Below are positions 878 to 63,792 of a stretch of DNA of 64,000 nt, piece after piece. Position 1 is the stretch's first letter. Every line of letters starts with the position of its first letter. Source of the DNA: a virus. The DNA lies in IMG/VR virus record IMGVR_UViG_3300030616_000016, positions 70,561-134,560 of that record, one strand, 5' to 3'. The notes under the pieces were generated by a model. The model was not told the origin of the DNA. It did not search any database and saw only the letters and a list, made by a program, of their open reading frames with translations. A program made the translations under genes and the position numbers.

Positions 878-2026
878 TTAGAACGAGTCAGCGCTTTCCT
901 TTTCTCTAACTGCTCTTTTTATTTGACTACTTAGTCTTGCGTGTGATTGCTTTTCTTTTGCTATGTCTTCTAATATTTCTATATCTTTACTGCTTAACAA
1001 CTTTCTTACTCTGATAATATCAAGGTGAGCAGCATATGATAGAGTTGCAAACAATGTTTCCAACTCCTTTTTATCACATTCATAATTCATGACTTTATGG
1101 ATCCACCCTTTATATTGCTTATATTTTTTGGATCCTATTCCACTAATTCTTCTTGCCATTGTTCTACGACTTATGTCAACTCCAAATACAACACCCAATG
1201 CACTTATTCTATTTATACCGCTTAACATAACTTTTGACTTATGTTTATTAAATCTCATTCCTTCTACTGCTACGGCCTTATTTGCGCACTTGAAAATATC
1301 ATTTATCCATTCTTTCCAGAATCTTTTAGATATGTAAGGCATAGAGCTACTTAGTTGTATGTCGTCAGCATATCTTGAATATCTGATCCTTCCATATGGC
1401 CAACCCATGCTTGACATTGTTATATCAAACTTTCTCATACATAGATTTGATATTACAGGACTTGATGGAGCACCTTGTGGTAATCCATTTGTCATTGAAA
1501 CAAGAGGTATTAATGGTATCTTATATTTTCTGCAGCATGTATCTACAGTATGTAATGATATAAGCATCTTTCTAATATGTTTTGCTTTAATAGATGGAAA
1601 GAAGTTCTTAATATCCATACTAATCATTATTCTAGCTCCATCATGTATCGACTGTAATTTGTTAATTGCAGTTTGGAAGCGTCTAGAACGTCTTAGTATT
1701 CTTCTAAAAGATTCTTGTGTTGTAAACAGCGGTTTTGGACTATATGCTAAGCTATGTCCATTTCTGTCATACTTTTGCAATAGCCATGAGACATATCTTT
1801 GTGCCGTTTTTAAGTCTTCGTCTGGCTCATGTAAATGCCTGATGCCACCTGATCTTTTTCTTATCATGTGGTGTGTATATCTTGAGTCTCTATCGTTTGA
1901 GTTTTGTTGTAAGTCTTCAAACAATTGCTGAATTGTAATACCAGATGGCAAGACTAGACTTAGAAAATTGTCAGGAGTTATATCATGAAGTCTCAGTTTC
2001 TTCTTTATCTGATTCTGTTCCATCAT
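878..2026 (-). CDS. Reverse transcriptase, retron/Abi-type (bacterial group-II-related RT)
   Basis: SGGIRHLHEPDEDLKTAQ; MDIKNFFPSI; GLPQGAPSSPVISNL; YSRYADDIQL (YADD catalytic box). The NFFPSI and LPQGAPxSPxxSN pattern is typical of retron-like RTs. The DGR-type I/LGxxxSQ motif is absent. Confidence 0.8.
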   Translation of the reverse strand: MMEQNQIKKKLRLHDITPDNFLSLVLPSGITIQQLFEDLQQNSNDRDSRYTHHMIRKRSGGIRHLHEPDEDLKTAQRYVSWLLQKYDRNGHSLAYSPKPLFTTQESFRRILRRSRRFQTAINKLQSIHDGARIMISMDIKNFFPSIKAKHIRKMLISLHTVDTCCRKYKIPLIPLVSMTNGLPQGAPSSPVISNLCMRKFDITMSSMGWPYGRIRYSRYADDIQLSSSMPYISKRFWKEWINDIFKCANKAVAVEGMRFNKHKSKVMLSGINRISALGVVFGVDISRRTMARRISGIGSKKYKQYKGWIHKVMNYECDKKELETLFATLSYAAHLDIIRVRKLLSSKDIEILEDIAKEKQSHARLSSQIKRAVREKESADSF

Positions 2027-3107
2027 CTCCGCCTTCCGATTCCGTATTGTCAGATATTAATTTGGTTATATCATTGTTTGCTGCAAATTCATATAGTGCT
2101 ATTATTCCTTGCACGCTTTCTTCGCCTATGTAGTAGTATCCACCACGCTTGGTGATTTTACCATCTACAATCATTTGATCTACTAAAAATCTTTCTTCAC
2201 TAAACCCATGATTAAAGATGAATGGATATTTTACTTCGGCTCCCTCCGGCATAGTACCAGACTGTCTAGTCTTATTGATTTTCATGTAATGCATGAAGCC
2301 AATAATTTTCTCTTTCTTCTTTCCATCTTCTTCTACAATGGCAGCTGGAGCTTCGCTTTTGCTACCTCTACGAGTCATCAGCCTTACGTGTGTAAAATGC
2401 TTAACCGCATTTCCTCCCTTAACGAGAGTTAGGTCACCATATCCACCAATATTGGTGTATATTTGACCAATCATTATGATTGTTGTGTTTGTCTTTGCTG
2501 CAGGACCACAAGCAAGTCTTAGGAACTGGCTCATTTTTCTTTGAAGAACACCGATGGTATCATCGTTTAGGCTACGGTTAGTACCGGTTTTACTTTCGAG
2601 TTCTGCGCGTGGAAGCAGACCGCCAATTGAATCAATAACTACGATGTCTACTAAATTCTCTCTCATAATGTCGAGACATTTATCTAGCATGTTCTCCATC
2701 GTATCTTTCTCAATTATAAAGAGCTCATCTGTATTGACTCCTTGTACTTTTAACCACTCTTTATCCAATGCTTCTTCTGCATCAACCCAGCATGCAATAC
2801 CATGGTTTTTCTGAACTTCTGCTACACATCTTGCACATGCAGTGCCTTTAGCTGTCTGTTCTGGTCCGGCGATTGTAACAATTTTACCTCTAGGAAAACC
2901 TCCGCCTAAATAGTCATCCCAGCCTTTAATGCCGGTTGATATTCTACCGTAATCCTCTAGTCCAAAATGTACAATTTGATTTTCATCATCGATGTCTTTG
3001 TTAATAGAAGTCGCTACTCTTTTTAGACGAGCCATCTTCTCTGCTTTTATATCTTGTGGAGATACAATCTTTTCTTCACTAGTATCTTTGCTTTTTCTCT
3101 TAGCCAT
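1983..3107 (-). CDS. recA: RecA-family recombinase
   Basis: Collinear with RecA: GGGFPRGKIVTIAGPEQTAKGT..., CWVDAEEALD, VVIDSIGGLLPRAELE, GGNAVKHFTHVRL. The 3' end overlaps the RT start by 44 nt. Confidence 0.85.
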   Translation of the reverse strand: MAKRKSKDTSEEKIVSPQDIKAEKMARLKRVATSINKDIDDENQIVHFGLEDYGRISTGIKGWDDYLGGGFPRGKIVTIAGPEQTAKGTACARCVAEVQKNHGIACWVDAEEALDKEWLKVQGVNTDELFIIEKDTMENMLDKCLDIMRENLVDIVVIDSIGGLLPRAELESKTGTNRSLNDDTIGVLQRKMSQFLRLACGPAAKTNTTIIMIGQIYTNIGGYGDLTLVKGGNAVKHFTHVRLMTRRGSKSEAPAAIVEEDGKKKEKIIGFMHYMKINKTRQSGTMPEGAEVKYPFIFNHGFSEERFLVDQMIVDGKITKRGGYYYIGEESVQGIIALYEFAANNDITKLISDNTESEGGDDGTESDKEETETS

Positions 3108-3651: not shown

Positions 3652-3752
3652 GCTTATTGCCTTTAAGTTTCTTATAGCCTGTCCATACTAATTCCCAACA
3701 GGCTATCTTAACTACCGTAGTGTATAATCTCCAGAGAATATATCCACAATGC

Positions 3753-4139
3753 CTATTCATGGCCCATATCCTCCTCAGGATTATACAAATAGGTTTTTCT
3801 GCCTATCATAAATCCTAATATACACATCTTTGTCATGCATAAATAGATATTCTTATCAAATTCTTCATCAGTATCACTATTTTCTAATATCCATTCTAGA
3901 TGGTCTTCACATACATTATCTATGAAATGCATGAGTGATCCTTCACATTCTTCTAACCAATCTTGTATCTCATTGCTCGTCTCTCTTTCTTCGAGCAATC
4001 TGTGACATTCGGAGATTATTTCTTTGGATACCATGTTGTAATCATCAAGTGTTATTTTCTTCATTGGTTTTTGGTCTCCATGTATATTTTGCATGCCAGG
4101 TTTTCTTTGCTTCAGTTGCATTGTCGTTTGTATTATCAT
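3753..4139 (-). CDS. Hypothetical protein (start uncertain)
   Basis: Co-directional ORF with no recognisable motif. Overlaps the neighbouring ORF, so a later ATG is likely. Confidence 0.4.
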   Translation of the reverse strand: MIIQTTMQLKQRKPGMQNIHGDQKPMKKITLDDYNMVSKEIISECHRLLEERETSNEIQDWLEECEGSLMHFIDNVCEDHLEWILENSDTDEEFDKNIYLCMTKMCILGFMIGRKTYLYNPEEDMGHE

Positions 4140-4584
4140 CCTGCTTTGTTTCCTGGCTCTCGTTGGCTTCGTTCTCTGGTTTAGGATCTTCTTTCTTTTC
4201 TTCTTTGATGCGATTGTGTTGATCTAAAATATCTACATTACATGTTTTGATAAATTCATTAAAGTCTGTTTCACTTAAACAGTAATCATTAACATGAATG
4301 TGATAATGTAGATGTTCAGAATCCATCTCAGAAGAAGTTACCAGTTTACCAACAATATACAATGTAGAATCCAAATCTACAGCCTTATCTATCTCCTCTT
4401 CTTCAGGATATTCGAAGTGTAGTTCGTATATATTACTATCATTTGGAGATATACTAGTACCTCTTGCTTTATATACTTTTGTAGATAGAGCTCCTTTCTT
4501 GTCATTGTCTACGGCATCGCTCATTAAATCAATCTTGATCGCCTTCAGAACTGTCATTCCTTGATTGAACCTCTGTATTATCAT
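4045..4584 (-). CDS. Hypothetical acidic protein (start probably 4524)
   Basis: Co-directional ORF with an acidic, Lys/Glu-rich C-terminus. Confidence 0.45.
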   Translation of the reverse strand: MIIQRFNQGMTVLKAIKIDLMSDAVDNDKKGALSTKVYKARGTSISPNDSNIYELHFEYPEEEEIDKAVDLDSTLYIVGKLVTSSEMDSEHLHYHIHVNDYCLSETDFNEFIKTCNVDILDQHNRIKEEKKEDPKPENEANESQETKQDDNTNDNATEAKKTWHAKYTWRPKTNEENNT

Positions 4585-21865: not shown

Positions 21866-23164
21866 GTGACATTACCCCACGCCTAAAGGCGGGGGCTTCC
21901 TAATTCATCGAAAATTGCGTTCCATACTGGCTACGTCTTACATCTTCTCCAAAGGCTTTAGGTTCCCCTTGCCCAGGGGTACAAAATGCAAAATTCAAAA
22001 TATTACTAGATGCAAGGGCATCTCTATCGTGTTTGGCACCACAAGTGCAAGTCCAATATCTGTCACTTAGCTTAAGATTATTATTTATAGCGCCGCACTG
22101 GTTACACATCTTGCTGGATGGTTCAAATCTTCCTATAGTCAAAACATGCTTTCCATACCAACCTGCCTTATACTCAAGAAAGGTACGAAAAGTATACCAT
22201 CCAACATCAGAGATAGCCTTGGCCAAACAATGATTCTTCACCATTCCAGAAACGTTTAAATCCTCAAGACACACTGCTTGGTTCTCGTCAATGAGCCTTT
22301 TGGACAATTTATGCAAAAAATCTTTACGTTGATTAGAAATCTTCTCATGTATCAACGCTACCTTCCTACGAGCCTTGTTTCTATTTGAAGAACCTTTCTT
22401 CTTCTTTGATAATTGTTTTTGCTTTCTTGCCAATCTTCTTTCAAGTTTCTTTAGGTATCTTGGATTATCTATTTTCTCGCCTGTTGATAGTGTTGCAAAA
22501 TGTTTTAATCCAACGTCAACACCTACACTATTATCTCGTTCAGGATTACATTTGATAGGTAATTCTTCTCCATTGTCAACCAAAATAGAAGCAAAGTATT
22601 TCCCAGAAGGAGCCATGAATATAGTTACAGTTTTAATATTGCCTTCAAATTGTCTATGGAATTTGCATTTGATGCCATCACGGAATTTCATTACATATAG
22701 CCTATTATTATCAAAATCCACATTACTTCCTTGTGGAAATTGACAAGATTGCTTTTTGAATTTCTTCTTAAATTGAGGATATCTTGCCTGTTTCTTAAAA
22801 AACCGCCGGAAAGCATTGTCAAGGTTTCTAAAGGCCATTTGCAAAGATTGACTATTAACTTCCTTCAGCCAACCATGCTCAGATTTCATATGTTTCAATT
22901 GCTTTATCAAATCAAAACAGGAAGGAGATTTCCCCGTTTTTTGATAAGACTCTGTTTTCTTTTGGAGTCCCAAATTGTATATGAACCGTACACAACCAAA
23001 ATGCTTCACAAGAAGCTCCTGTTGTTTTTTGTTGGGGTATATTTTGTATTTATATGCTCGTATCATTATATTTATAGTATAGCACAGGTTTCTGTAAATG
23101 TCAAGAGAAAAACGCATTCTTATATCCCCATGGCTAAAGCCAGGGGTCTTACGAATGCACCTTG
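21866..23164 (-). mobile_element. IS200/IS605-family element carrying tnpB only (IS1341-like), 1.3 kb
   Basis: The ends are defined by comparison with copies at 33637-33883 and 62734-62781. The left end (LE) starts CAAGGTGCATTCGTAAGACCCCTGGCTTTAGCCATGGGG immediately after TTAT. The right end (RE) finishes CCCCCGCCTTTAGGCGTGGGGTAATGTCAC. Both ends have subterminal imperfect hairpins. No tnpA is present. Confidence 0.8.
21900..23066 (-). CDS. tnpB: TnpB (OrfB) RNA-guided-nuclease-family protein
   Basis: MIRAYKYKIYPNKKQQELL, GVDVGLKHFATLSTGEKIDNP (RuvC-I Asp), VCLEDLNV (RuvC-II Glu), CNQCG...CTCG (zinc finger), HDRDALASSNI (RuvC-III Asp). Confidence 0.9.
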   Translation of the reverse strand: MIRAYKYKIYPNKKQQELLVKHFGCVRFIYNLGLQKKTESYQKTGKSPSCFDLIKQLKHMKSEHGWLKEVNSQSLQMAFRNLDNAFRRFFKKQARYPQFKKKFKKQSCQFPQGSNVDFDNNRLYVMKFRDGIKCKFHRQFEGNIKTVTIFMAPSGKYFASILVDNGEELPIKCNPERDNSVGVDVGLKHFATLSTGEKIDNPRYLKKLERRLARKQKQLSKKKKGSSNRNKARRKVALIHEKISNQRKDFLHKLSKRLIDENQAVCLEDLNVSGMVKNHCLAKAISDVGWYTFRTFLEYKAGWYGKHVLTIGRFEPSSKMCNQCGAINNNLKLSDRYWTCTCGAKHDRDALASSNILNFAFCTPGQGEPKAFGEDVRRSQYGTQFSMN

Positions 23165-28239: not shown

Positions 28240-29895
28240 TTATTTTTTAATACTGATAGAGAACATTTCTTTATCCTCTGTAAAGTATACACTGGTACCA
28301 TCAGTGTATAGTGGCATTGATGAGTCTATCGGCGGATTAGTAATAATGCGTTTTTGATTATCTTTAGAGATCTCAATCTTTTGATCGCTAAATACATCAA
28401 TGCAAACTCCATTATTAAGAACAATGAAATTGATATTATCAACATCGCGCTCTTCTTTGTCTAGCAGAATACCTTTATTTTCTTTGCTGCATAGTTTGAA
28501 TCGGAATCTATAATATTTACCAGATTCTTCTGCTATGCATACTAGAATTCCTCTGCTATGTTTTGCATTGATTATTCTAAGTCCATGGAGTTCCTCAATA
28601 GGACCTAGAAAACTACCAGAATCTTCTAATGGCGCATATGCCCAACATTTGTCTAGGAAGTTGCTAATTACTACTCCACTAAACATTTGATTCATAGTAC
28701 CAAGATTTTGGGATGGATTCGAGCATGCCGCGCTCTTATTCCCCATATTTTTTGCATATACCTCATATACTGAGGCGCCGTTTCTGCAAAATATACTACC
28801 ATTGTATATCATGGCTTTGTCTGCGGCAAATTTACCTGGTATATCCGTTTCTATTTCTACACAGCCATTATCAATTATGCCTAACACAGGGTCAGGAGAT
28901 AGATTGCATAGAAATGCCTTTTTATTGGATATATCCTTAAATATGGATTTACCACAGTATATTGCCTTATCCGTAAATGTATAGAAAATACCATTTAGGA
29001 ATTGTATTGATTTAATCGGCTCATTGTACTTATACATTGATTTAATGTCAAAATTTGCTGTGCTTCTTATAGTCTTTTGAACCATAGCTATATTAATTGT
29101 AGCGTCAGGTTTAGGTGGAGCGCTGCGTTTATTCTCAATGAATATTGACTTAAACCACTCCATATGAGCTTTAGGAATAACTGAGAAGTCTTGACATACG
29201 GATGGAATGGTAACCTTACTATCAAATACGGATATACCATCATCCATTCGCTTAGTAAATTCTCTTGGTTTATAGTCTGGGTGTTTACCCTTATAAGGAT
29301 GGATACCAACATAAAGCTGAAATGCTATTACTGCAAACGAGAACCAATCGCTTAGTTCTGTGAACTTTTTGGCTAAGCGGTCTCTTATTGAATCCATAAT
29401 AGCATTAGCTGGAAATGACTTTGTCTGATAACTGTCAACGTCAATAAAGTAAGGTACTTTATGACCTTTGTCTATCAGAAAGTTCATTTCATTCATATCT
29501 ACTATCAGGCATTGTTTAGAATGAATGTGCTCGACCGTGTCTTGTATATTGCGCACAATTTCTAATACTTGATTAGGAGATATATTATTATCTTTTCTGT
29601 ACTGCTTAGTAAAGAGCTTGCATAGAGCACTTGTCTCTTTAATATACTTCATTGTATATCCGATGACATTGCTTGTCTTTTTATCGCAAACAATATCTTC
29701 CGGTTTGATAACATTGCCGGCTGTTATATAGCCAAGCTCTTCAATCTTTCTTAATGGTATCATATGCTTGATATCATTATAAATCTTGAAGGCAATATTG
29801 TCTTTTTTATATACAGAACCTTGACCACCAGATGCAATAAAATCATTGTCTTTCAGGTCAAATGAAGCCTTTGTTCTATTTACAATGACTCTCAT
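28240..29895 (-). CDS. Ser/Thr protein kinase with large C-terminal domain
   Basis: IASGGQGSVYKKDNIAFKIY (Gly-rich loop and Lys). HSKQCLIVDMNEMNFLI (catalytic-loop D..N). FIDVDSY (DFG-equivalent). Confidence 0.7.
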   Translation of the reverse strand: MRVIVNRTKASFDLKDNDFIASGGQGSVYKKDNIAFKIYNDIKHMIPLRKIEELGYITAGNVIKPEDIVCDKKTSNVIGYTMKYIKETSALCKLFTKQYRKDNNISPNQVLEIVRNIQDTVEHIHSKQCLIVDMNEMNFLIDKGHKVPYFIDVDSYQTKSFPANAIMDSIRDRLAKKFTELSDWFSFAVIAFQLYVGIHPYKGKHPDYKPREFTKRMDDGISVFDSKVTIPSVCQDFSVIPKAHMEWFKSIFIENKRSAPPKPDATINIAMVQKTIRSTANFDIKSMYKYNEPIKSIQFLNGIFYTFTDKAIYCGKSIFKDISNKKAFLCNLSPDPVLGIIDNGCVEIETDIPGKFAADKAMIYNGSIFCRNGASVYEVYAKNMGNKSAACSNPSQNLGTMNQMFSGVVISNFLDKCWAYAPLEDSGSFLGPIEELHGLRIINAKHSRGILVCIAEESGKYYRFRFKLCSKENKGILLDKEERDVDNINFIVLNNGVCIDVFSDQKIEISKDNQKRIITNPPIDSSMPLYTDGTSVYFTEDKEMFSISIKK

Positions 29896-33887: not shown

Positions 33888-35558
33888 TTAGTTTATAAGG
33901 CAAAACAGATACTTCTGAATTCTGTCACTGCCTGTTGCATATTCGTCTATCAGGCGATATAAGAGCTTGTCCCAGCCTTTAGATAGCATCAACTGCATTA
34001 CAGTGATGTATATCCTTGTTCCAGACCTCTTACCACTATTTGCATATATTCCATCATCAGATAGCTTACGACTGCATGCATGAGTATTTGTCTGGTGGCT
34101 GAACTTATCTAATACTATCCAGAACACTTTCCCAGACCATGCCTCAACTGTCTGTCCGTTATAAGTATGCTTTTGTGGCTTGCATTCTTTTATAAGAGCA
34201 GATGGTATATTCCCATCTTCTCCTTCTAGAAAGTGAGGAACGGGCGCCGGCCCTGATTCCTCTGCAATATTATTAAGCATAGCTTCTACTATCTGACCTG
34301 GATTCCTACGCTTTAGAGTTGCAAGAGCGTTGGTTACCACTTCTGCTGGTTTGCCATCTATCTTAGGCATTTGCTCGTCTGGTATAATATTTACTATACC
34401 TTTATTACCGTGACGATTTGTAATTTTGTCGCCACTTCTGAGAATATGAAATCTCTCGTATTCGACAATAAGTTTTGTACAAACTGTGTTTGCTACTTTT
34501 GTTCTTATCTCACTGATATTAGACAGTTTAGCTTCACGCTTGACATGACATTTAAGCGTGATTGTTTCTTCTCCATCAGAATAAGAACCAATTATCTGAT
34601 TTGGTCTTACAATGTCTCCGGCTTTGGCTTCCATCTTTAGGCTTTGTTTGCACCATCCTGGTACTACGAATGTCTGTTTCTCAGGAATGACACATGTCAT
34701 TTTTCTAGCTGCTGACTTACTCATAACAATCTGTTCTTTGTATACACCAGGCATGATTGCATGAACTGTAAGTAAGTGCTTGCCATTAAGATTGTTATCA
34801 TAATCTTCTGGAAACACCATAGGTTTATCTGGACTAACTAGCTTGCTGGAAGCCTTGAAATTAGATGCAGTGGTTCTGCGGCGATTATATTCTGGTACAA
34901 TAAGATTCTTATTGAGTATATCGCAATAAACCCGACCTCTTTTGGTGAAGCATCCAATATCGTTTATTTTGCATTCTTCAGCCATGTACATTGTGCGACC
35001 ACAATTCCCCGATGACTGACTTATACTTGTCCAATCAAGAATGCCTTCTGTATTGAATGGCATAAATTCATCCGTTCGTTCTTGAAATAGCTCTAATGAT
35101 ATTTTGGGTCCATAGTGAGTAGCTATTCCCTTTACGACATGAGATAATCTTGAAGTTTTAAGTAAATTATCGAGCTTCATTTGAGCTGTGGTAGAATCTT
35201 CTTGATGTCCGAACATAAAGAAGTCTGACAGTTGTGTAGCATATGCTTGCTTAATGAATTTAAGAAGAAGCTCGTATGGTGTTGATAAATATGTGTGATT
35301 AATATTCATACATCTGTTATTAAAGATTGGCATTGGATTAAGTGTATAGCATAATTGCCGGCTTATTCCATTTACAGAAAACATACCCTTGTTATCAATC
35401 TTAGGTATATTTAGTTTTACGACTGTTTGCATGCTCTGGGATGCCTCTTTAACAAGCATTTTTGTATGAAATAGGTCATCATATTCTTCTATATGACAGT
35501 CAACAGGCAAACAATTACATATAGGAAACAATCTTGCAAGATGAGACTTATTCATCAT
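33888..35558 (-). CDS. Multisubunit RNA polymerase beta-like subunit, C-terminal fragment
   Basis: RSGDKITNRHGNKGIVNIIPDEQMPKIDGKPAEVVTNALATLKRRNPGQIVEAML is collinear with the RpoB GDK..RHGNKG...DMP...NP...R.N.GQ region. Confidence 0.75.
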   Translation of the reverse strand: MMNKSHLARLFPICNCLPVDCHIEEYDDLFHTKMLVKEASQSMQTVVKLNIPKIDNKGMFSVNGISRQLCYTLNPMPIFNNRCMNINHTYLSTPYELLLKFIKQAYATQLSDFFMFGHQEDSTTAQMKLDNLLKTSRLSHVVKGIATHYGPKISLELFQERTDEFMPFNTEGILDWTSISQSSGNCGRTMYMAEECKINDIGCFTKRGRVYCDILNKNLIVPEYNRRRTTASNFKASSKLVSPDKPMVFPEDYDNNLNGKHLLTVHAIMPGVYKEQIVMSKSAARKMTCVIPEKQTFVVPGWCKQSLKMEAKAGDIVRPNQIIGSYSDGEETITLKCHVKREAKLSNISEIRTKVANTVCTKLIVEYERFHILRSGDKITNRHGNKGIVNIIPDEQMPKIDGKPAEVVTNALATLKRRNPGQIVEAMLNNIAEESGPAPVPHFLEGEDGNIPSALIKECKPQKHTYNGQTVEAWSGKVFWIVLDKFSHQTNTHACSRKLSDDGIYANSGKRSGTRIYITVMQLMLSKGWDKLLYRLIDEYATGSDRIQKYLFCLIN

Positions 35559-43009: not shown

Positions 43010-44020
43010 TTACCAAGGCCAGTTAGGGACCTCGATCTTATGAACATGTTTCAAGTGATCGAATGCATAAGGCTGGAAAGGCGCTTCGACGCCATAATGA
43101 GCACGATAAGCAACTTCCCACCAGTGAGACAGGAATATCTTAGTAGCCCATCTCTTACTTCTCATATGAATCTGACTATTGGGGAGCTTGCCTTCGCGAT
43201 ATATTGCCCTCTGTTTATGACCAGGCACTCTTCGAAGAACTTCTCGTGCAATATGCGCATATTCCTTGGCTTCATTCTTACGCGACTCGATAATCTTCCT
43301 TTCAACAACAAGATGTCCATAGAGATCTTTTGGATTGTTGCATGTCATATTGAAAGACTCACCGATTTTCCAGCAGAGTGTTTTCAGTTCTGAATTCCAG
43401 GGACGCATTGACAGACCTCTGTAAAGCGTCTTGCCTGTATGAACTCCGCCTCCTTTCTGTAATGAGAGACGAAGTGCGGTAGCTGCTTTGATTCCTCCGG
43501 CTTCTTGTATCGCATTTGCTACCTTAATAGCATCTTCTTCAGATACTCTTCTTGTACTATCAGGATTAATACCGGCTTCGTCAACCATGATTTCTCTTGT
43601 AACTTTCTTGCCAAGCCAGCGCTTTCCGTCTACAAGACCAGCATAGCTATAGATATGTCCTGGAGTCTTAGCTTTGTCCATATCTATATGGGCAATAAGA
43701 CCGGCGCTGATAACAGGGCCAATACCTACAACTGATTGAGCCCATGTACCAATTTTTGTTGATAATGAGAAATGATTGAGCGCGAGCTTCACCTGATTCT
43801 CAAGACGCTCCGCATTCTTAAGAAACCAATCAAGCACTTCCATTGGAGGGTCGTCTACGCCCTGCTCTGCTGCTCTAAGCTGACCAGCAAGCCTGATTCT
43901 CTGGTTCTGCATGGTATAATAACTATCTACCAGATAGCGGGCTTCCTGACGCGTAATCTTTCTTGACGCGTTTCTTATGTCTTTACCTACTCTTTCAATA
44001 ATTTCTTCAATAGCCATCAC
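43010..44020 (-). CDS. Protein with IS110/IS116/IS902-type transposase C-terminal (HhH) domain-like region
   Basis: VVGIGPVISAGLIAHIDMDKAKTPGHIYSYAGL resembles the GIGP..A..L.AEI....F......YAGL motif. I could not see the N-terminal DEDD catalytic domain. Confidence 0.4.
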   Translation of the reverse strand: MMAIEEIIERVGKDIRNASRKITRQEARYLVDSYYTMQNQRIRLAGQLRAAEQGVDDPPMEVLDWFLKNAERLENQVKLALNHFSLSTKIGTWAQSVVGIGPVISAGLIAHIDMDKAKTPGHIYSYAGLVDGKRWLGKKVTREIMVDEAGINPDSTRRVSEEDAIKVANAIQEAGGIKAATALRLSLQKGGGVHTGKTLYRGLSMRPWNSELKTLCWKIGESFNMTCNNPKDLYGHLVVERKIIESRKNEAKEYAHIAREVLRRVPGHKQRAIYREGKLPNSQIHMRSKRWATKIFLSHWWEVAYRAHYGVEAPFQPYAFDHLKHVHKIEVPNWPW

Positions 44021-44038: not shown

Positions 44039-45196
44039 TTAAAGCATGTTTACCATGCTATTATATAGACCCGCATACTCTTGCGGGCCTGAACGTTTGC
44101 CTGGGTTATCGGACAATTTAACAGTAGGAACAAAGCCCTCTCTATTATATGAACAGGCAGTCATTTTAATAACGATATTAAGAGGATCTACTCCAACATC
44201 ATTAGTGAAATTAGTGCCTATACCATATACTGTTTTGATTCTTTTGTTTACATATTCTTCTATCTCAAGAACCTTGTCAACATCAAGAGAGTCTGAGAAT
44301 ACAATGGTTTTTGTACTTGGATCTATACCAAGGCTCTCATAGTGTTTTATTATTTTGTCAGCAAATTCCATAGGATCGCCTGAATCTTGCCTTACACCAT
44401 CCCAAAGACTCGCTCTGACATAATCAAATGATCTTAGAAACCAATCAGTTGTATAAGTATCAGTAAGCGCTATGCCTAGTTTGCCCTTATATGTCTCTGC
44501 CCATTTATCAAGGGCAATAGAAGTAGCCATTTGAGGACCAAATATGGCGCCGTGGAACATAAACCACTCATGAGCTTGTGTGCCAATTGGTCGCATGTTA
44601 TGAGTGGTTGCTAATAATACATTACTTGTACCAAGACAGTATTGTGAAATTTGTTTTCTTGTAGACATGTCATCCAGAAGTTCATTCTGTACACCAAATG
44701 AAAATCTGCGTCTGGTTCCGAATTCTATGAAGTTGACTTTGTGCTTGATGAGTTTGTCAACCTTGTCTACATTTGTTTTATATCTTTCTTTCCTGAACTT
44801 AGGCGCTATACCAAGCTTAAGATAGTATAGCTCGCTAATAGCCGCTAATAGCGGTACTTCCCATAGTATAGCAGAATACCATGGCCCGCATATTTCTACT
44901 TTGAGATCTTCGTCTGTTTGTGTAACACATACTTCATTAGGATTGAATCGATGATGTCGTAGGTATTCTAGATATGTTGAATCAAAGACTCCAATCTTTC
45001 GCATAGCTGTAATACTATCGTCTATAAAGTATGTATGTTGCATATGATCAATAAACTCATTTAATTCCTTTTGCATACTTTCAGGGAACTCAGTCTTTGT
45101 TCTTGACTTGAATTCATATTTTACTAATGCAGATGGATAGTGTTTAAGTACTGCATTTTGCATGGCGAACTTATAGAAATCATTGTCTGCTGCCAT
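44039..45196 (-). CDS. pncB: Nicotinate phosphoribosyltransferase
   Basis: NDFYKFAMQNAVLKHYP (TD-x-YK-x-TM region). LGTSNVLLATTHNMRPIGTQAHEWF (GTSN...GT.AH). 385 aa. Confidence 0.75.
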   Translation of the reverse strand: MAADNDFYKFAMQNAVLKHYPSALVKYEFKSRTKTEFPESMQKELNEFIDHMQHTYFIDDSITAMRKIGVFDSTYLEYLRHHRFNPNEVCVTQTDEDLKVEICGPWYSAILWEVPLLAAISELYYLKLGIAPKFRKERYKTNVDKVDKLIKHKVNFIEFGTRRRFSFGVQNELLDDMSTRKQISQYCLGTSNVLLATTHNMRPIGTQAHEWFMFHGAIFGPQMATSIALDKWAETYKGKLGIALTDTYTTDWFLRSFDYVRASLWDGVRQDSGDPMEFADKIIKHYESLGIDPSTKTIVFSDSLDVDKVLEIEEYVNKRIKTVYGIGTNFTNDVGVDPLNIVIKMTACSYNREGFVPTVKLSDNPGKRSGPQEYAGLYNSMVNML

Positions 45197-46327: not shown

Positions 46328-46669
46328 TCAATTGACTGATTTGGATCCACAGTTTGGACATTCAAATAAGAGTTTAATATCATAGCCACAATAAAAGCAT
46401 TGATTATACGGCTCAAGATATTTTATAGTATTGACTGTATTAATAGTTGTGCCAAGTGCGACATTGCTATTAGGGTTTAGAGTGGCATTAGAAAGCTGAA
46501 ACATATTCCATTTTAATCTTTTAGTTATATATACATTGTGCTTATGAGTCCAATTGTATATATAATTCCTATGTACATCGGAAATATCTTCGTTACAAGT
46601 AAGTATGTTCTTGTGATATCTGACGCGTATGTGTCGCTTCATTACTTTTGCGGCTTCTCTATATTTCAT
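46328..46669 (-). CDS. Small protein with C-terminal zinc ribbon
   Basis: CFYCGYDIKLLFECPNCGSKS. Confidence 0.5.
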   Translation of the reverse strand: MKYREAAKVMKRHIRVRYHKNILTCNEDISDVHRNYIYNWTHKHNVYITKRLKWNMFQLSNATLNPNSNVALGTTINTVNTIKYLEPYNQCFYCGYDIKLLFECPNCGSKSVN

Positions 46670-47417: not shown

Positions 47418-47759
47418 TCATAATAATGTAGAGCCGCATAAATCACAAATCTTCTGCTCTATATTAATATCTTTATTCCCACAAAATGGACATAATGCTA
47501 AATGAATGTTCTGAATGTCTGTTGATGTTAATGCTGCTGTATGCCAATAAGAGTCTATGACTATTGATTTATACTCCATGTGTATTCTAGATATTTTGAT
47601 ACTCTTGTTTGCTATAGTATTTGGAAGCCTGCATTGATACATTGTTGTACCATCTCCTTTATCATATATAGCACCATTAATAAGAGGAGAGTTTTCATCT
47701 TGTACATAAATTACAGACCATTGGTTTTCGTATGCAATAACACATTCTTCATAGGTCAT
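47418..47759 (-). CDS. Zinc-ribbon paralogue family member
   Basis: AAGGAG RBS before MTYEECVIAYENQ. C-terminal LCPFCGNKDINIEQKICDLCGS. Confidence 0.6.
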   Translation of the reverse strand: MTYEECVIAYENQWSVIYVQDENSPLINGAIYDKGDGTTMYQCRLPNTIANKSIKISRIHMEYKSIVIDSYWHTAALTSTDIQNIHLALCPFCGNKDINIEQKICDLCGSTLL

Positions 47760-47784
47760 TATGATACTCTCCTTCAATAATCAA

Positions 47785-48108
47785 TTAGTATTCTATAATG
47801 ACTTCTGGCTGTTTATACTCATTTGTATCTTTGTTAGTTTTAACCGGCGGCAAGACATTAATGATCCTACCATATGTGTCTTTTACTGTGCGGCTCGCTT
47901 CAAATTCTTCTTGTGTTAGTTCATTGGGATTGCCATACTGTTTGACCCATCCATTATATAGCTGCTTAGCATTTCTTTCTCTTTTTTGTATGATGCTTTT
48001 GCTGCTTCTAAATGTACATATAATCATTGATGAAAGTATGCAGATTATCGCTAATAGTACTACTAATTCAATAAAGGCAAACCCTTTATTACACTTTAAT
48101 ATTTTCAT
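47785..48108 (-). CDS. Protein with type-IV-pilin-like N-terminus (prepilin cleavage/methylation motif)
   Basis: MKILKCNKGFAFIELVVLLAIICILSSMI fits the G|F-x-x-x-E hydrophobic pilin signal. Confidence 0.55.
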   Translation of the reverse strand: MKILKCNKGFAFIELVVLLAIICILSSMIICTFRSSKSIIQKRERNAKQLYNGWVKQYGNPNELTQEEFEASRTVKDTYGRIINVLPPVKTNKDTNEYKQPEVIIEY

Positions 48109-48119
48109 GATATCTCCTG

Positions 48120-48488
48120 TTAGTCAATGTACCCATTTTTCTTAAAGCTAACTAATACTATCTTATTTTTCTCGCGATCATGTTGAAGCTTGATGTATAC
48201 TTTGGTATTACCTATTACTGTTTTGTATACATCCATATATTTTCTTACGTATAGATTTGCTTTTGTTGCATAAGCAAAATCTGGCTCTTTTAAGTTGAGC
48301 AGAGTTTCTACAACTTGGCTTTTTGAAAAGCTAAAGTCTTTTTGCGCATGATATCTCGCATCTCTTAATATCATATATCTATCATTCTTAATGAGAGTTT
48401 TTGCGCCTTCTAACTCAATAGAAGGCATGGCTCTCCTTTTTATGACAGGGAGATCTATGTCATTATTATTTGCTAAAGATACTTTCAC
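48120..48488 (-). CDS. mqsR: MqsR-family toxin-like protein
   Basis: LKEPDFAYATKANLYVRKYMDVYK...TKVYIKLQHDREKNKIVLVSFKKN aligns by eye with E. coli MqsR LSESDFYKSMTT...WQDVYR...QVYLKITVIHDVLIVSFKEK. Confidence 0.55.
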   Translation of the reverse strand: MKVSLANNNDIDLPVIKRRAMPSIELEGAKTLIKNDRYMILRDARYHAQKDFSFSKSQVVETLLNLKEPDFAYATKANLYVRKYMDVYKTVIGNTKVYIKLQHDREKNKIVLVSFKKNGYID

Positions 48489-48516: not shown

Positions 48517-48912
48517 TCATGGTAGTTCTGAATCGCAGCCGCAATTATTGCAAGCCTTATGCTTAATGTCTATATCTTGATTACCGCAATATTTGCATCT
48601 TATTACTTCAAGATCCTCAATTGATACATTTAGGTATAGAATTGTTTCTCCATCTGATACTGCAAATCCGCCTACATTCTCTGAATTTATCACATTAAGT
48701 TCATCTTTTACTATATCGACTCCTACAATATTTAGTGTCTTACCACGAAATATATCCACATAACAAGGCCCACAAATTGATGATTGTGAGACACAACCAT
48801 TTTCATCTATGTCAGCATGTCTTGCAGTTAAATTATATTCTTCATGTTCACCTATATTTAAGAATACAGGTGTTTTGTTAATATATGCCCGAACTGCCTC
48901 TTTGAACGTCAT
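48517..48912 (-). CDS. Zinc-ribbon paralogue family member
   Basis: MTFKEAVRAYINK... and C-terminal RCKYCGNQDIDIKHKACNNCGCDSE. Confidence 0.6.
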   Translation of the reverse strand: MTFKEAVRAYINKTPVFLNIGEHEEYNLTARHADIDENGCVSQSSICGPCYVDIFRGKTLNIVGVDIVKDELNVINSENVGGFAVSDGETILYLNVSIEDLEVIRCKYCGNQDIDIKHKACNNCGCDSELP

Positions 48913-49036: not shown

Positions 49037-49381
49037 TTATTTCGCTTCACGGACATCAATCCCAAGTTTGTCTTTAATCCACTTTGCAACAAGATGTCTG
49101 TGACAAAACTTCGTTGATCCTTCCCAGCATAATAGTATGGGTTCGCCGTCTACTAGCTCATGAATTTCATCATAAACTTCAGCGGCATTTAATTTACTTA
49201 GAATCTTGTCGTATTCTCGTACATAGGCTATTTTATCCAAGTTTCTTCTATAGGACTGTAATAATTCTTGTGATGGAGCTAATGTACGATATGTTGAGCC
49301 TATATAGAATTTTGGAGGAAATAGCGCTATAGACACTGCATCTGGATGAGTACCATAATTTCTGAAGTATGAAGTTTTCAA
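49037..49381 (-). CDS. DUF488-family protein
   Basis: LAPSQELLQSY...ILLCWEGSTKFCHRHLVAKWI (LLC.E....CHR..va.w). Confidence 0.6.
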   Translation of the reverse strand: MKTSYFRNYGTHPDAVSIALFPPKFYIGSTYRTLAPSQELLQSYRRNLDKIAYVREYDKILSKLNAAEVYDEIHELVDGEPILLCWEGSTKFCHRHLVAKWIKDKLGIDVREAK

Positions 49382-54756: not shown

Positions 54757-55101
54757 CTAAATACTTGTCTCACATCCGCAGTTCTTACAAACACCTTTTT
54801 GTATTTCATCGCTGCCACAGAATTCACAAATTGCTAATTTCGCATATCTAATCGATTCGGATATTAAAAAATATTTTGAACCATTTGATACTATAAAGCA
54901 ATCGGTAGGAAATAGTGCATCAACAGACTGTATGGTACAAATTTTATCTCTTATTAAGTCTTCCACAAGTACATCAAATAGTTCTGTGCTTCTAATTCCT
55001 TTTGCATCAGTAAGTGTTGTTTTCATAGGATATGAACGAGGTATATCGAATACGATTTTTAGCTTATGTTTTATGGCATGCATTGCTTCTTCTATGGTCA
55101 T
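54757..55101 (-). CDS. Zinc-ribbon paralogue family member
   Basis: AAAGGA RBS before MTIEEAMHAIKHK. C-terminal AICEFCGSDEIQKGVCKNCGCETS. The track ORF is longer. Confidence 0.6.
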   Translation of the reverse strand: MTIEEAMHAIKHKLKIVFDIPRSYPMKTTLTDAKGIRSTELFDVLVEDLIRDKICTIQSVDALFPTDCFIVSNGSKYFLISESIRYAKLAICEFCGSDEIQKGVCKNCGCETSI

Positions 55102-55124
55102 AATATTATCCTTTGGAAATGATA

Positions 55125-55328
55125 TTAGGCAGCAAGCTTCCATACTCCAGCTGAGGCGCCTGCTAATGCCCATGTAGAAGAAATGCCCATATATGTCAAT
55201 ATACTTGCTCCTCCAAGAGTGGAGAGGCATAGCAATGAGAATCCTTTCCAGTGATTAGCTATTCCTAAAAAGAAATTTTTTGCTGATGACACGAATGAGT
55301 TTGTAGTTCTTGTAATAAAGTCTTTCAT
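55125..55328 (-). CDS. Small Gly/Ala-rich membrane protein
   Basis: LLCLSTLGGASILTYMGISSTWALAGASAGVW, with an AGAGG RBS. Confidence 0.45.
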   Translation of the reverse strand: MKDFITRTTNSFVSSAKNFFLGIANHWKGFSLLCLSTLGGASILTYMGISSTWALAGASAGVWKLAA

Positions 55329-55554: not shown

Positions 55555-55866
55555 CTAAGTATTAGTTTCACATCCACAATTGCAGCATACTTCATCTTGA
55601 ATCTCCTTACTGCCACAAAATTGACATTGTATTTCATAAGGAATTATATATCCTTCATCTACCCAGCGTCTGAGAGTAGTTGCTGTAATTGCGCTCCAGT
55701 TACTGCCACACCCTATTTCATTTAGATTACAATCTAGTCCAATCAGATAAAATGCAGCATCGCAAACGGAATGACGTTCTACTCTGAATATTTGTCCTGA
55801 ATTGCGCTCAATTTTATCTGTCCATTGCCATAGCTCACCAACTTGTGGCATTCTTGTTTCACTCAT
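55555..55866 (-). CDS. Zinc-ribbon paralogue family member
   Basis: AAGGAGGAG RBS. C-terminal IQCQFCGSKEIQDEVCCNCGCETN. Confidence 0.6.
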   Translation of the reverse strand: MSETRMPQVGELWQWTDKIERNSGQIFRVERHSVCDAAFYLIGLDCNLNEIGCGSNWSAITATTLRRWVDEGYIIPYEIQCQFCGSKEIQDEVCCNCGCETNT

Positions 55867-56324: not shown

Positions 56325-56756
56325 TCATTGCCGAGAGCATTCACTTTTGCGTTCTTCTATAGGCATTTCTGAATTGCAGCCGCAATTTAAACATACATCC
56401 TTAATCTCATTATGCCCGCAGAATTTGCATATGGCAATAGACAGCTCACGTGGCTCGATAATTATATAGATATCTGATGTCCATTCTAAGATAACAAAGT
56501 CTATCTTCTCTCCATCATAACCCGTTTCTTTATAGACTCTTGCTATCTTCAATGGTTCGTGGTCTGCGCACTCAAGTGAGATACATAATAGCACGCCTTC
56601 TTCATCTACAATATAGCGTTCTTTATTATGTATTACATTTTGAGCCTTAAGCGCGGCAGGATTAAATGCATACCATGCATAATTATCATTAGGATCAACT
56701 ATAACCATAACCTTTAGTCCATTCTTGTAGCACTGCCTTACTTCTTTCAGTTTCAT
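56325..56756 (-). CDS. Zinc-ribbon paralogue family member
   Basis: MKLKEVRQCYKNG... and C-terminal AICKFCGHNEIKDVCLNCGCNSE. Confidence 0.6.
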   Translation of the reverse strand: MKLKEVRQCYKNGLKVMVIVDPNDNYAWYAFNPAALKAQNVIHNKERYIVDEEGVLLCISLECADHEPLKIARVYKETGYDGEKIDFVILEWTSDIYIIIEPRELSIAICKFCGHNEIKDVCLNCGCNSEMPIEERKSECSRQ

Positions 56757-58073: not shown

Positions 58074-58403
58074 TCACGATTGTTCACTTCCGCAGTTTGT
58101 GCATGTAGTACCACTAAGATTTGTATAGCCACAATATTTACAACTGGCTGTTTCTACAACACTACTGTATGTCCAATAGTATCCTCCTGCAGATATGCAT
58201 ACCAATAAGTATTCGTCTATCTTTGATGCACTTGTTTTTATAGTATCAATTATAAATGGAATGTTAAGCGGCGGCTGCATGGTCTCAGATAAGGAGTAAT
58301 GGTCGTGCTGTGTTCCAAAACTTGGATATTCATTAGGTGTATGCCTTCTAATAACACACTTGGTTTTATTCTCCTTGGCTATTTGAAGCTCTTGAATTGT
58401 CAT
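58074..58403 (-). CDS. Zinc-ribbon paralogue family member
   Basis: MTIQELQIAKENK... and C-terminal SCKYCGYTNLSGTTCTNCGSE. Confidence 0.6.
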   Translation of the reverse strand: MTIQELQIAKENKTKCVIRRHTPNEYPSFGTQHDHYSLSETMQPPLNIPFIIDTIKTSASKIDEYLLVCISAGGYYWTYSSVVETASCKYCGYTNLSGTTCTNCGSEQS

Positions 58404-63318: not shown

Positions 63319-63792
63319 TTAAGTGGTTTGTAACTCGGCAATAAGTAATGTGTTTCGTAAGATACTGCGCACGCTCTCAAAACTAAGATACAAATCGCTG
63401 TAGCAATCATTACATGACTCATATGGATAGTTATTGTATATATTATCACTCCCACAAAATGGACATGTTAATTTATATAAACTATCAGATACACATTTGT
63501 TAATATTGAATGTGAATAATTTTAATGTTAGTGCGTTGCCTTCATCGAGCGGGACTTTGAACAATAAACTATAGGTACATATATTGTCACTCCCCTTTTT
63601 TCCTATACTTTCTAGATAAAGCGGCAATTTTCTTTGTTGGCCTATGTTAAGTTCTTGAGATACAACAGTCTCCTCCTCATCTGTCATATGGAACCTATAG
63701 TTAGTCGTTTGAGTCTCGTTAAGTGTATATGGGTTAGCAATATAAATAAGCGGCCATTTCTCTTTCATAGCCTTAAGTAAGTTCAATTCCAT
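63319..63792 (-). CDS. Zinc-ribbon paralogue family member (divergent)
   Basis: MELNLLKAMKEKW... and C-terminal LTCPFCGSDNIYNNYPYESCNDC. Confidence 0.5.
   Translation of the reverse strand: MELNLLKAMKEKWPLIYIANPYTLNETQTTNYRFHMTDEEETVVSQELNIGQQRKLPLYLESIGKKGSDNICTYSLLFKVPLDEGNALTLKLFTFNINKCVSDSLYKLTCPFCGSDNIYNNYPYESCNDCYSDLYLSFESVRSILRNTLLIAELQTT

Follow-up and report, generated by a model that had tools for sequence, protein, structure and literature searches.

An MqsR-family toxin-like gene without MqsA in a 64-kb window, adjacent to a pilin-like gene in a jumbo-phage-like element

Introduction

MqsR has been described as the toxin of chromosomal toxin-antitoxin (TA) modules or toxin-antitoxin-chaperone (TAC) modules. 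Here, an MqsR-like gene is described that is located directly upstream of a gene for a pilin-like protein in a stretch of 64,000 nucleotides (nt) of viral DNA, hereafter the window. The window covers positions 70,561 to 134,560 of IMG/VR record IMGVR_UViG_3300030616_000016 and is part of the 231.6-kb metagenome contig ena:ERZ27252234:k141_1275754. Tentatively, and with slightly less than even confidence, the locus is read as a solitary phage RNase of the MqsR type beside a functionally independent pilin-like gene.

Several described systems are close enough for comparison. In Escherichia coli MqsR, the substitutions K56A or Y81A abolished RNA cleavage (PMC9636575), and K56A, Q68A, Y81A and K96A each relieved toxicity (PMC2791442). 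RegB of bacteriophage T4 is a nuclease whose structure resembles RelE/YoeB and for which no antitoxin is known (PMC3014915). A precedent for viral pilins is the haloarchaeal provirus SNJ2, whose own pilins hijack the machinery of its host (PMC12426801).

The MqsR-like protein shared with E. coli MqsR (3HI2; PF15723) the family and fold, a similar core size and the equivalents of Tyr81, Lys96, Asp69, Tyr71 and Lys83. It differed from it by the lack of an MqsA partner, Tyr at the position of Lys56, Met at the position of Gln68, a disordered N-terminal extension of 20 residues and the location of its gene on a jumbo-phage-like element. The two proteins were about 21% identical and a direct phmmer match was not obtained. 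The nearest detectable relatives, at about 30% identity, included members of MqsR-MqsA-SecB triplets of the TAC type, whereas neither antitoxin nor chaperone was found in the window. T4 RegB served as a working analogy, being a phage-encoded, sequence-specific mRNA endonuclease that inactivates mRNA early in infection (PMC3014915). There was no sequence relationship to RegB, which forms a separate family that uses His-based catalysis and depends on ribosomal protein S1, and RegB was not among the Foldseek matches listed for the MqsR-like model.

The pilin-like protein resembled class III minor pilins and pseudopilins (GspH, ComGC/ComGE/ComGF, PpdD and Geobacter PilA-N) in the leader, the cleavage motif and a hydrophobic helix in register, and its predicted mature form of about 98 amino acids (aa) had the size of ComGC or ComGE. 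Unlike in these families, matches covered only the N-terminal ~45 residues and stayed far below the cut-off of each family, the C-terminal part had neither detectable relatives nor a disulfide pair, and the gene was a phage gene away from pilus genes. SNJ2 is similar in that virus-borne pilin genes use the secretion and assembly machinery of the host (PMC12426801). In contrast to the element studied here, SNJ2 is an archaeal temperate virus whose pilins form dominant surface filaments, and there was no sequence link to it.

Results and Discussion

Identity of the MqsR-like gene

Both genes were recovered on the minus strand at the positions given by the initial annotation, with products of 122 and 107 aa that were separated by 11 nt (Table 1). 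The larger product had been recognised by eye as MqsR-like. This assignment held and, from profile and model comparisons, membership in the MqsR family is close to certain. A missing profile match had been considered an argument against the call, yet the protein matched the Pfam model MqsR_toxin (PF15723) over positions 2–95 of 95 with 42.1 bits (gathering cut-off 26.2; E = 1.2e-10). The MqsR domain comprised residues 21–117 and was preceded by the N-terminal extension of about 20 residues. A further match was obtained to phrog_15062 of unknown function (E = 2.3e-9). An exhaustive HMMER search in 1.84 billion representatives yielded one relative with 96% identity and 39 distant proteins with 26–37% identity. 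A profile of the MqsR-like protein and 37 distant homologs, from which the sequence of E. coli MqsR was left out, matched MqsR in the PDB (3hi2_B) with E = 2.2e-24.

The fold was modelled with AlphaFold2 (AF2) on an alignment of the distant homologs. The model reached a pLDDT of 87 overall and of 97–98 in the core, and residues 1–17 were predicted to be disordered. Its best Foldseek match was again 3hi2_B, with a target-normalised TM of 0.92 and a root-mean-square deviation of 1.5 Å; RelE and HigB2 followed far behind. The motifs quoted in the initial annotation were real: DVY, VYIK and VSFKK corresponded to invariant or near-invariant columns of the MqsR-family alignment.

The GTG start had a GAGGAG sequence 9 nt upstream. 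The metagenome gene caller had begun the gene at an internal ATG, resulting in 102 aa. The GTG start is favoured because L001, a strain variant with 96% identity, has ATA in place of the internal ATG. Compared with the window, the first 21 codons of this variant (48429–48488) held four nonsynonymous and no synonymous changes, including the loss of the internal ATG, whereas the other 101 codons showed one nonsynonymous and three synonymous changes. Given this excess of nonsynonymous changes, the disordered extension appears to be under relaxed constraint. No defence-system model of PADLOC matched the MqsR-like or the pilin-like gene.

Absence of an MqsA-type antitoxin

MqsR toxin genes usually precede their antitoxin gene, and the initial annotation had pointed out that MqsA was missing from this toxin-first layout. 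This observation was confirmed by the loci of nine distant relatives, seven from the exhaustive HMMER search and two IMG/VR viral contigs found with a scan for the degenerate pattern IWQDVYK (12 matches, two of them real; both matches of the variant LWQDVYK occurred by chance). An MqsA-type gene coding for 157–213 aa was located immediately downstream of mqsR in all nine loci, including both viral contigs. Eight of the nine MqsA-type proteins had an N-terminal CxxC...CxxC zinc ribbon followed by a segment like a helix-turn-helix (HTH). The Pfam MqsA model was matched by six, three of these weakly, with scores that did not exceed the curated cut-off. MqsR-MqsA-SecB triplets were present in three loci: L090 (P0025), L092 (P0028) and L093 (P0023). 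One of the loci, L106 (IMG/VR UViG_3300049218_000483, positions ~3688–4409, minus strand), had the MqsR homolog followed by an MqsA-like protein that matched the HTH part only and was devoid of cysteines, apparently an MqsA variant without zinc.

In the window, a local MqsA hidden Markov model gave a best E-value of 1.6 against 970 six-frame open reading frames (ORFs). The Pfam families listed for the 105 minus-strand ORFs contained no MqsA, HTH_3, SecB, Peptidase_A24/prepilin peptidase or pilus ATPase. A tblastn search of 50,697 deposited phage records revealed no MqsR homolog with any of four different queries. The absence of MqsA within the 64-kb window is firm. Because the antitoxin that defines the MqsRA TA system was sought in the window and was absent, the locus does not belong to that system.

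The toxin might still be held in check by an unrecognised phage protein, either a paralog among the flanking zinc-ribbon proteins or the product of a gene at another site of the 231-kb genome, and would then be part of a genuine TA or abortive module serving carrier-state maintenance or acting against competing phages. MqsA binds MqsR via its zinc-binding domain (PMC2791442), and both genes flanking the pair end in zinc ribbons. Moreover, a DUF488 gene matching a PADLOC candidate-defence model was present two genes upstream, and about 167 kb of the element are located outside the window. The zinc-ribbon proteins did not fit the role of an antitoxin. At least six to eight paralogs were scattered over 18 kb without toxins, their zinc ribbon was C-terminal with a spacing of 10–12 residues compared with an N-terminal position and a spacing of ~30 residues in MqsA, and hhalign of the family against the MqsA profile gave a probability of 3.8%. 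The flanking proteins were rejected as MqsA-like antitoxins on account of their multi-copy nature and this low probability. In addition, no HTH_3/XRE protein was among the Pfam families listed for the window. Control by an unrecognised antitoxin is quite unlikely.

Active-site residues

The absence of catalytic residues had been named as a second argument against a toxin. This applied in part: Lys56 of E. coli MqsR was replaced by Tyr73, whereas the equivalent of Tyr81 was present as Tyr98. The residue correspondences are firm because the alignment was ungapped between the DF and DVY motifs. Besides Tyr98, the equivalents of Lys96 (Lys116), Asp69, Tyr71 and Lys83 were kept. The second alteration was Gln68 to Met85.

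Substitution of Lys56 occurred elsewhere in the family. Among 36 distant relatives, Lys was present at this position in 29 and another residue in seven. Four relatives without Lys56 were looked up, P0003 (Ile), P0019 (Val), P0023 (His) and P0028 (Asn). All four loci contained an antitoxin gene and two also the gene for the SecB chaperone. As these relatives keep antitoxins, toxicity in the MqsR family is probably not strictly dependent on Lys56. Their loci thus argue for toxicity in spite of a missing Lys56, and the change to Tyr does not rule out toxicity of the phage protein. Lys76, which is also Lys in P0003 and P0019, was considered as a relocated catalytic lysine. The idea was left unsupported because residue 76 is part of a predicted beta-strand and would face the opposite side from residue 73.

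Alternatively, the MqsR-like protein may be catalytically dead or repurposed as a regulator that binds RNA or ribosomes and is not a nuclease. In the E. coli enzyme, K56A abolished cleavage and Q68A lowered toxicity, both positions differ in the phage protein, and the lack of an antitoxin is the expectation for a non-toxic protein. The conserved remainder of the active site (Tyr81, Lys96, Asp69, Tyr71 and Lys83) and the confidently modelled core fold speak against such a loss of function, as do the four relatives without Lys56, in which the retained antitoxins, in two cases together with SecB, imply retained toxicity. The plasticity of active sites in the RelE superfamily, as in RegB, is a further point against it. 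A dead or repurposed protein is considered unlikely.

The pilin-like gene

The initial annotation had described the neighbouring product as a protein with a type IV pilin-like N-terminus and without an HTH, and both statements were supported. The sequence is MKILKCNKG/FAFIELVVLLAIICILSSMIIC, in which the N-terminal prepilin signal reads MKILKCNKG/FAFIE (slash, predicted cleavage site). Cleavage is predicted before Phe10, which places Glu14 at position +5. The hydrophobic alpha1-N helix spanned residues 10–33 and was followed by a charged C-terminal part of about 70 aa. The protein thus had the short basic leader, Gly at −1, Phe at +1, Glu at +5 and the ~20 hydrophobic residues of a class III signal. 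It was alone among the 970 six-frame ORFs of the window in having the motif G-F-x-x-x-E together with a hydrophobic stretch.

The four best sequence matches in the PDB were type IV pilins, among them Geobacter PilA, PilE1 and PilA. They were in register at the cleavage site and weak, with E-values of 0.02–0.44. Ten NCBIfam models of pilins and pseudopilins matched residues 5–50, including GspH (5.6e-6) and ComGE (1.3e-5). The N-terminal part also matched several PHROG families of unknown function and one annotated as 'pilin'. The AF2 single-sequence model comprised a helix of residues 8–58 and four short strands, with a pLDDT of 67 overall and 42–57 in the C-terminal part. In this low-confidence model, the predicted order of a helix and a small sheet is the ground plan of pilins. 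A significant fold match of the model was found neither in the PDB nor in BFVD. Comparison with MqsA gave an hhalign probability of 0.3%, and no HTH was found. Besides an identical copy, no homolog was detected in phage GenBank, IMG/VR or the metagenome contigs of JGI. Pfam listed no pilus machinery (prepilin peptidase, assembly ATPase or platform protein) among the 105 ORFs of the window, and the protein would depend on the pilus machinery of the host.

For this gene, a chance resemblance to prepilins has to be weighed. The product would then be an unprocessed bitopic membrane protein of small size, for example of the lysis or exclusion type. The generic prepilin models remained under their curated thresholds, the AF2 model was weak and without a structural match, pilus genes were not present nearby, and the charge distribution did not clearly favour the pilin topology. 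Such a coincidence would have to account for a complete and correctly placed motif, from the K-rich leader of nine residues to the hydrophobic stretch, for the fact that the top four PDB and all ten NCBIfam matches were pilins in register, and for a predicted helix of ~50 residues followed by a small sheet. We regard a chance resemblance as rather unlikely, though with a chance that is not negligible.

Adjacency and conservation of the gene pair

The spacer between the two genes carried its Shine-Dalgarno-like sequence 5 nt upstream of the pilin-like ATG. Its length was typical of the window, where the median gap of the 105 minus-strand genes was about 15 nt. Consensus scans for a promoter or terminator belonging to the pair remained at background level. 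Close relatives of either protein were absent from phage GenBank (megablast and tblastn), IMG/VR and JGI metagenome contigs. Close copies were confined to identical or 96%-identical ones in three sibling samples in ENA, and outside the window the gene pair was recovered only from two sibling samples, in fragments with 96–100% identity to the window. The pilin-like protein differed by one amino acid among the strain variants. At this level of sequence identity, the copies from the sibling samples are best taken as strain variants, not as independent replicates. No positive evidence was found that the adjacency is meaningful.

A new type of antitoxin was one of three alternatives offered in the initial annotation. 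In such a TA or immunity pair, the pilin-like protein would replace MqsA and neutralise the MqsR-like RNase, sequester it at the membrane or regulate it. The pilin-like gene fills exactly the slot that is held by MqsA in the nine relatives, beginning 11 nt past the stop codon with its own ribosome-binding site. The gene order was kept in three samples, and no other antitoxin candidate was recognised in the window. Against this stand the strain-level identity of the three samples (>96%), which are not independent, the ordinary spacing and the lack of MqsA similarity. As an ORFan encountered in strain variants only, the pilin-like protein has no homologs from which co-occurrence could be judged. 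To our knowledge, no pilin-type antitoxin has been described.

The predicted topology is a further obstacle. In pilins, the soluble domain is located outside the cytoplasm and only the leader inside. Because only the leader of nine residues would face the cytoplasm, where the RNase acts, direct neutralisation by the pilin-like protein is unlikely by analogy with established pilin topology. A new antitoxin type gained no positive support from these analyses and is very unlikely. Highly improbable is also a membrane-anchored antitoxin or regulator that is processed by prepilin peptidase and ties the toxin to the state of the host pilus or secretion system, or a joint module of pilus interference and mRNA shutoff. 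The evidence was best fitted by the other two alternatives taken together, an orphan toxin and a pilin-like protein with an unrelated role.

Proposed roles and their weighing

We infer from these comparisons an RNase activity of the MqsR-like protein and its targets, processing of the pilin-like protein and independent functions of the two genes. In the favoured reading as a solitary MqsR-type RNase beside an independent pilin-like gene, the MqsR-like gene would have been captured from a bacterial mqsRA or mqsRA-secB (TAC) module without the antitoxin. Expressed in infected cells only, it would not need an antitoxin. The RNase would most likely cut mRNA and thereby cause shutoff of host translation, faster turnover of early phage transcripts, or both. 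The pilin-like protein would insert into the host membrane, be cut after Gly9 by the prepilin peptidase of the host and enter the machinery of a host type IV pilus, type II secretion system or competence pilus. The outcome may be blocked or remodelled pili, which could for example exclude competitors that depend on pili. Both genes would be members of a block of small accessory genes.

Several points weigh against this reading. The changes of Lys56 and Gln68 leave the RNase activity of the phage protein unproven. An antitoxin could lie elsewhere on the contig, of which 64 of 231.6 kb were covered. The generic N_methyl models stayed just under their cut-offs, with 17.3 versus 21.2 bits for PF07963 and 14.2 versus 16.3 bits for TIGR02532. 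The charge of the pilin-like protein was +5 after the membrane helix versus +3 in the leader, a caveat for its predicted topology. The proposed independence of the two genes relies on the absence of linkage evidence, as independent evolutionary replicates do not exist among the copies. Finally, a GC(U/A) specificity like that of the E. coli enzyme would also hit phage transcripts, which is tolerable under a RegB-like model without lending it support.

Self-protection by avoidance of GCU was considered and rejected. The observed/expected ratio (O/E) of GCU on the coding strand was 1.00, and the toxin-like gene itself contained five GCU. The GC dinucleotide, with an O/E of 1.23 on the coding strand of the element, was not depleted either. 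If the phage protein has the specificity of the E. coli enzyme at all, protection of phage transcripts through a loss of target sites is excluded, as GCU is not avoided. Over the whole window, CpG was depleted on the coding (minus) strand (O/E 0.66) and GpC enriched (1.23), and GGG and CCC were the trinucleotides most under-represented relative to the dinucleotide expectation.

Flanking genes and gene content of the element

The zinc-ribbon family on both sides of the pair was identified with blastp and alignment and belonged to no Pfam or PHROG family (Table 1). Its members had 100–160 aa, an N-terminus of the type MT(F/Y)(K/E)E(A/C)V and a C-terminal CxxCG-x10-12-CxNCG. The DUF488-N3a protein ('active DUF488-N3 subclade') encoded two genes upstream of the MqsR-like gene matched the PADLOC candidate-defence model PDC-M45C (E = 4.5e-10) and phrog_2450.

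All recognisable genes of the window were located on the minus strand, with 105 non-overlapping ORFs and a G+C content of ~35%. The contig was found to encode a RecA/UvsX-like recombinase, UvrD and DEAD helicases, a fragment-sized RNA polymerase beta subunit, a Ser/Thr kinase, NAPRTase, YopX, TnpB and a reverse transcriptase. The element was assigned as uncultured and jumbo-phage-like; since structural genes were absent within the 64-kb window, 'phage' was deduced from gene content. No near relative was found among deposited phages, and a search for relatives in IMG/VR with the neighbouring GerE-like and DUF488 genes revealed none. It represents a lineage that has no closely related sequenced member.

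The RNA polymerase beta fragment (Rpb2 domain 6) showed 26–44% identity to any phage record, over short stretches only. Its region also encoded a Ser/Thr kinase, a PP2C phosphatase, ThiF, UDG, Band_7 and an S41 peptidase. The gene directly downstream of the RecA/UvsX-like gene encoded the reverse transcriptase (RVT_1, E = 7.6e-20; phrog_2825). Two transposase genes were present, TnpB/IS605 OrfB with a Cas12f-like TNB domain and an IS110-type Transposase_20 (phrog_4285) adjoining the NAPRTase gene. TnpB was uninformative about the host: its closest relatives, with 51–54% identity, were found in Methanosarcina, with many bacterial phyla just behind. The bacterial-type GFxxxE motif, RecA and the Shine-Dalgarno sites favour a bacterial host.

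Table 1. Coordinates of the gene pair, its active-site codons and other genes discussed in the text (positions in the window).
Feature	Coordinates	Strand	Description and basis
MqsR-family (RelE-superfamily) toxin-like gene	48120..48488	−	122 aa from GTG; Pfam, PHROG, PDB profile, AF2
MqsR domain	about 48138–48428	−	residues 21–117
Tyr73 codon at position of E. coli MqsR Lys56	48270..48272	−	active-site deviation, ungapped alignment
Tyr98 codon, equivalent of E. coli MqsR Tyr81	48195..48197	−	invariant in 39/39 aligned sequences
Spacer between MqsR-like and pilin-like genes	48109..48119	−	11 nt; Shine-Dalgarno-like AGGAGA
107-aa ORFan with prepilin-type (class III) signal	47785..48108	−	ATG start; motif, profiles, PDB matches
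Leader MKILKCNKG of the pilin-like protein	48082–48108	−	predicted cleavage at its end
Hydrophobic alpha1-N helix of the pilin-like protein	48010–48081	−	residues 10–33
Upstream 131-aa protein (context)	48517..48912	−	multi-copy family, C-terminal CxxCG...CxNCG zinc ribbon
Downstream 113/119-aa zinc-ribbon paralog (context)	47418..47777	−	blastp and alignment
Zinc-ribbon family members	46328–46669, 47418–47777, 48517–48912, 54757–55230, 55555–55866, 56325–56756, 58074–58403, 63319–63792	all −	
DUF488-N3a protein	49037–49381	−	two genes upstream of the MqsR-like gene
IS110-type transposase	43010–44020	−	Transposase_20
NAPRTase gene	44039–45196		adjoins the IS110-type transposase
RNA polymerase beta region	33888–35558, 28240–29895; 1–38000 generally	− (first two)	Rpb2 domain 6 fragment and neighbours
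TnpB/IS605 OrfB gene	21900–23117	−	inside the element
Reverse transcriptase and RecA/UvsX-like genes	878–2026, 1983–3107	−	RVT_1

Significance

Current concepts are unchanged unless the two proteins interact. The locus would be clearly interesting only in case of such an interaction, or if the enzyme with Tyr73 is active with a new specificity. If the favoured reading of a solitary RNase is true, a jumbo phage with a lone MqsR would add MqsR to the few antitoxin-less viral nucleases of the RelE fold, of which T4 RegB is the example for comparison. The pilin-like gene would join the small number of viral genes for proteins of this kind. The natural change of Lys56 to Tyr would provide a natural test of whether Lys56 is truly indispensable in the MqsR family.

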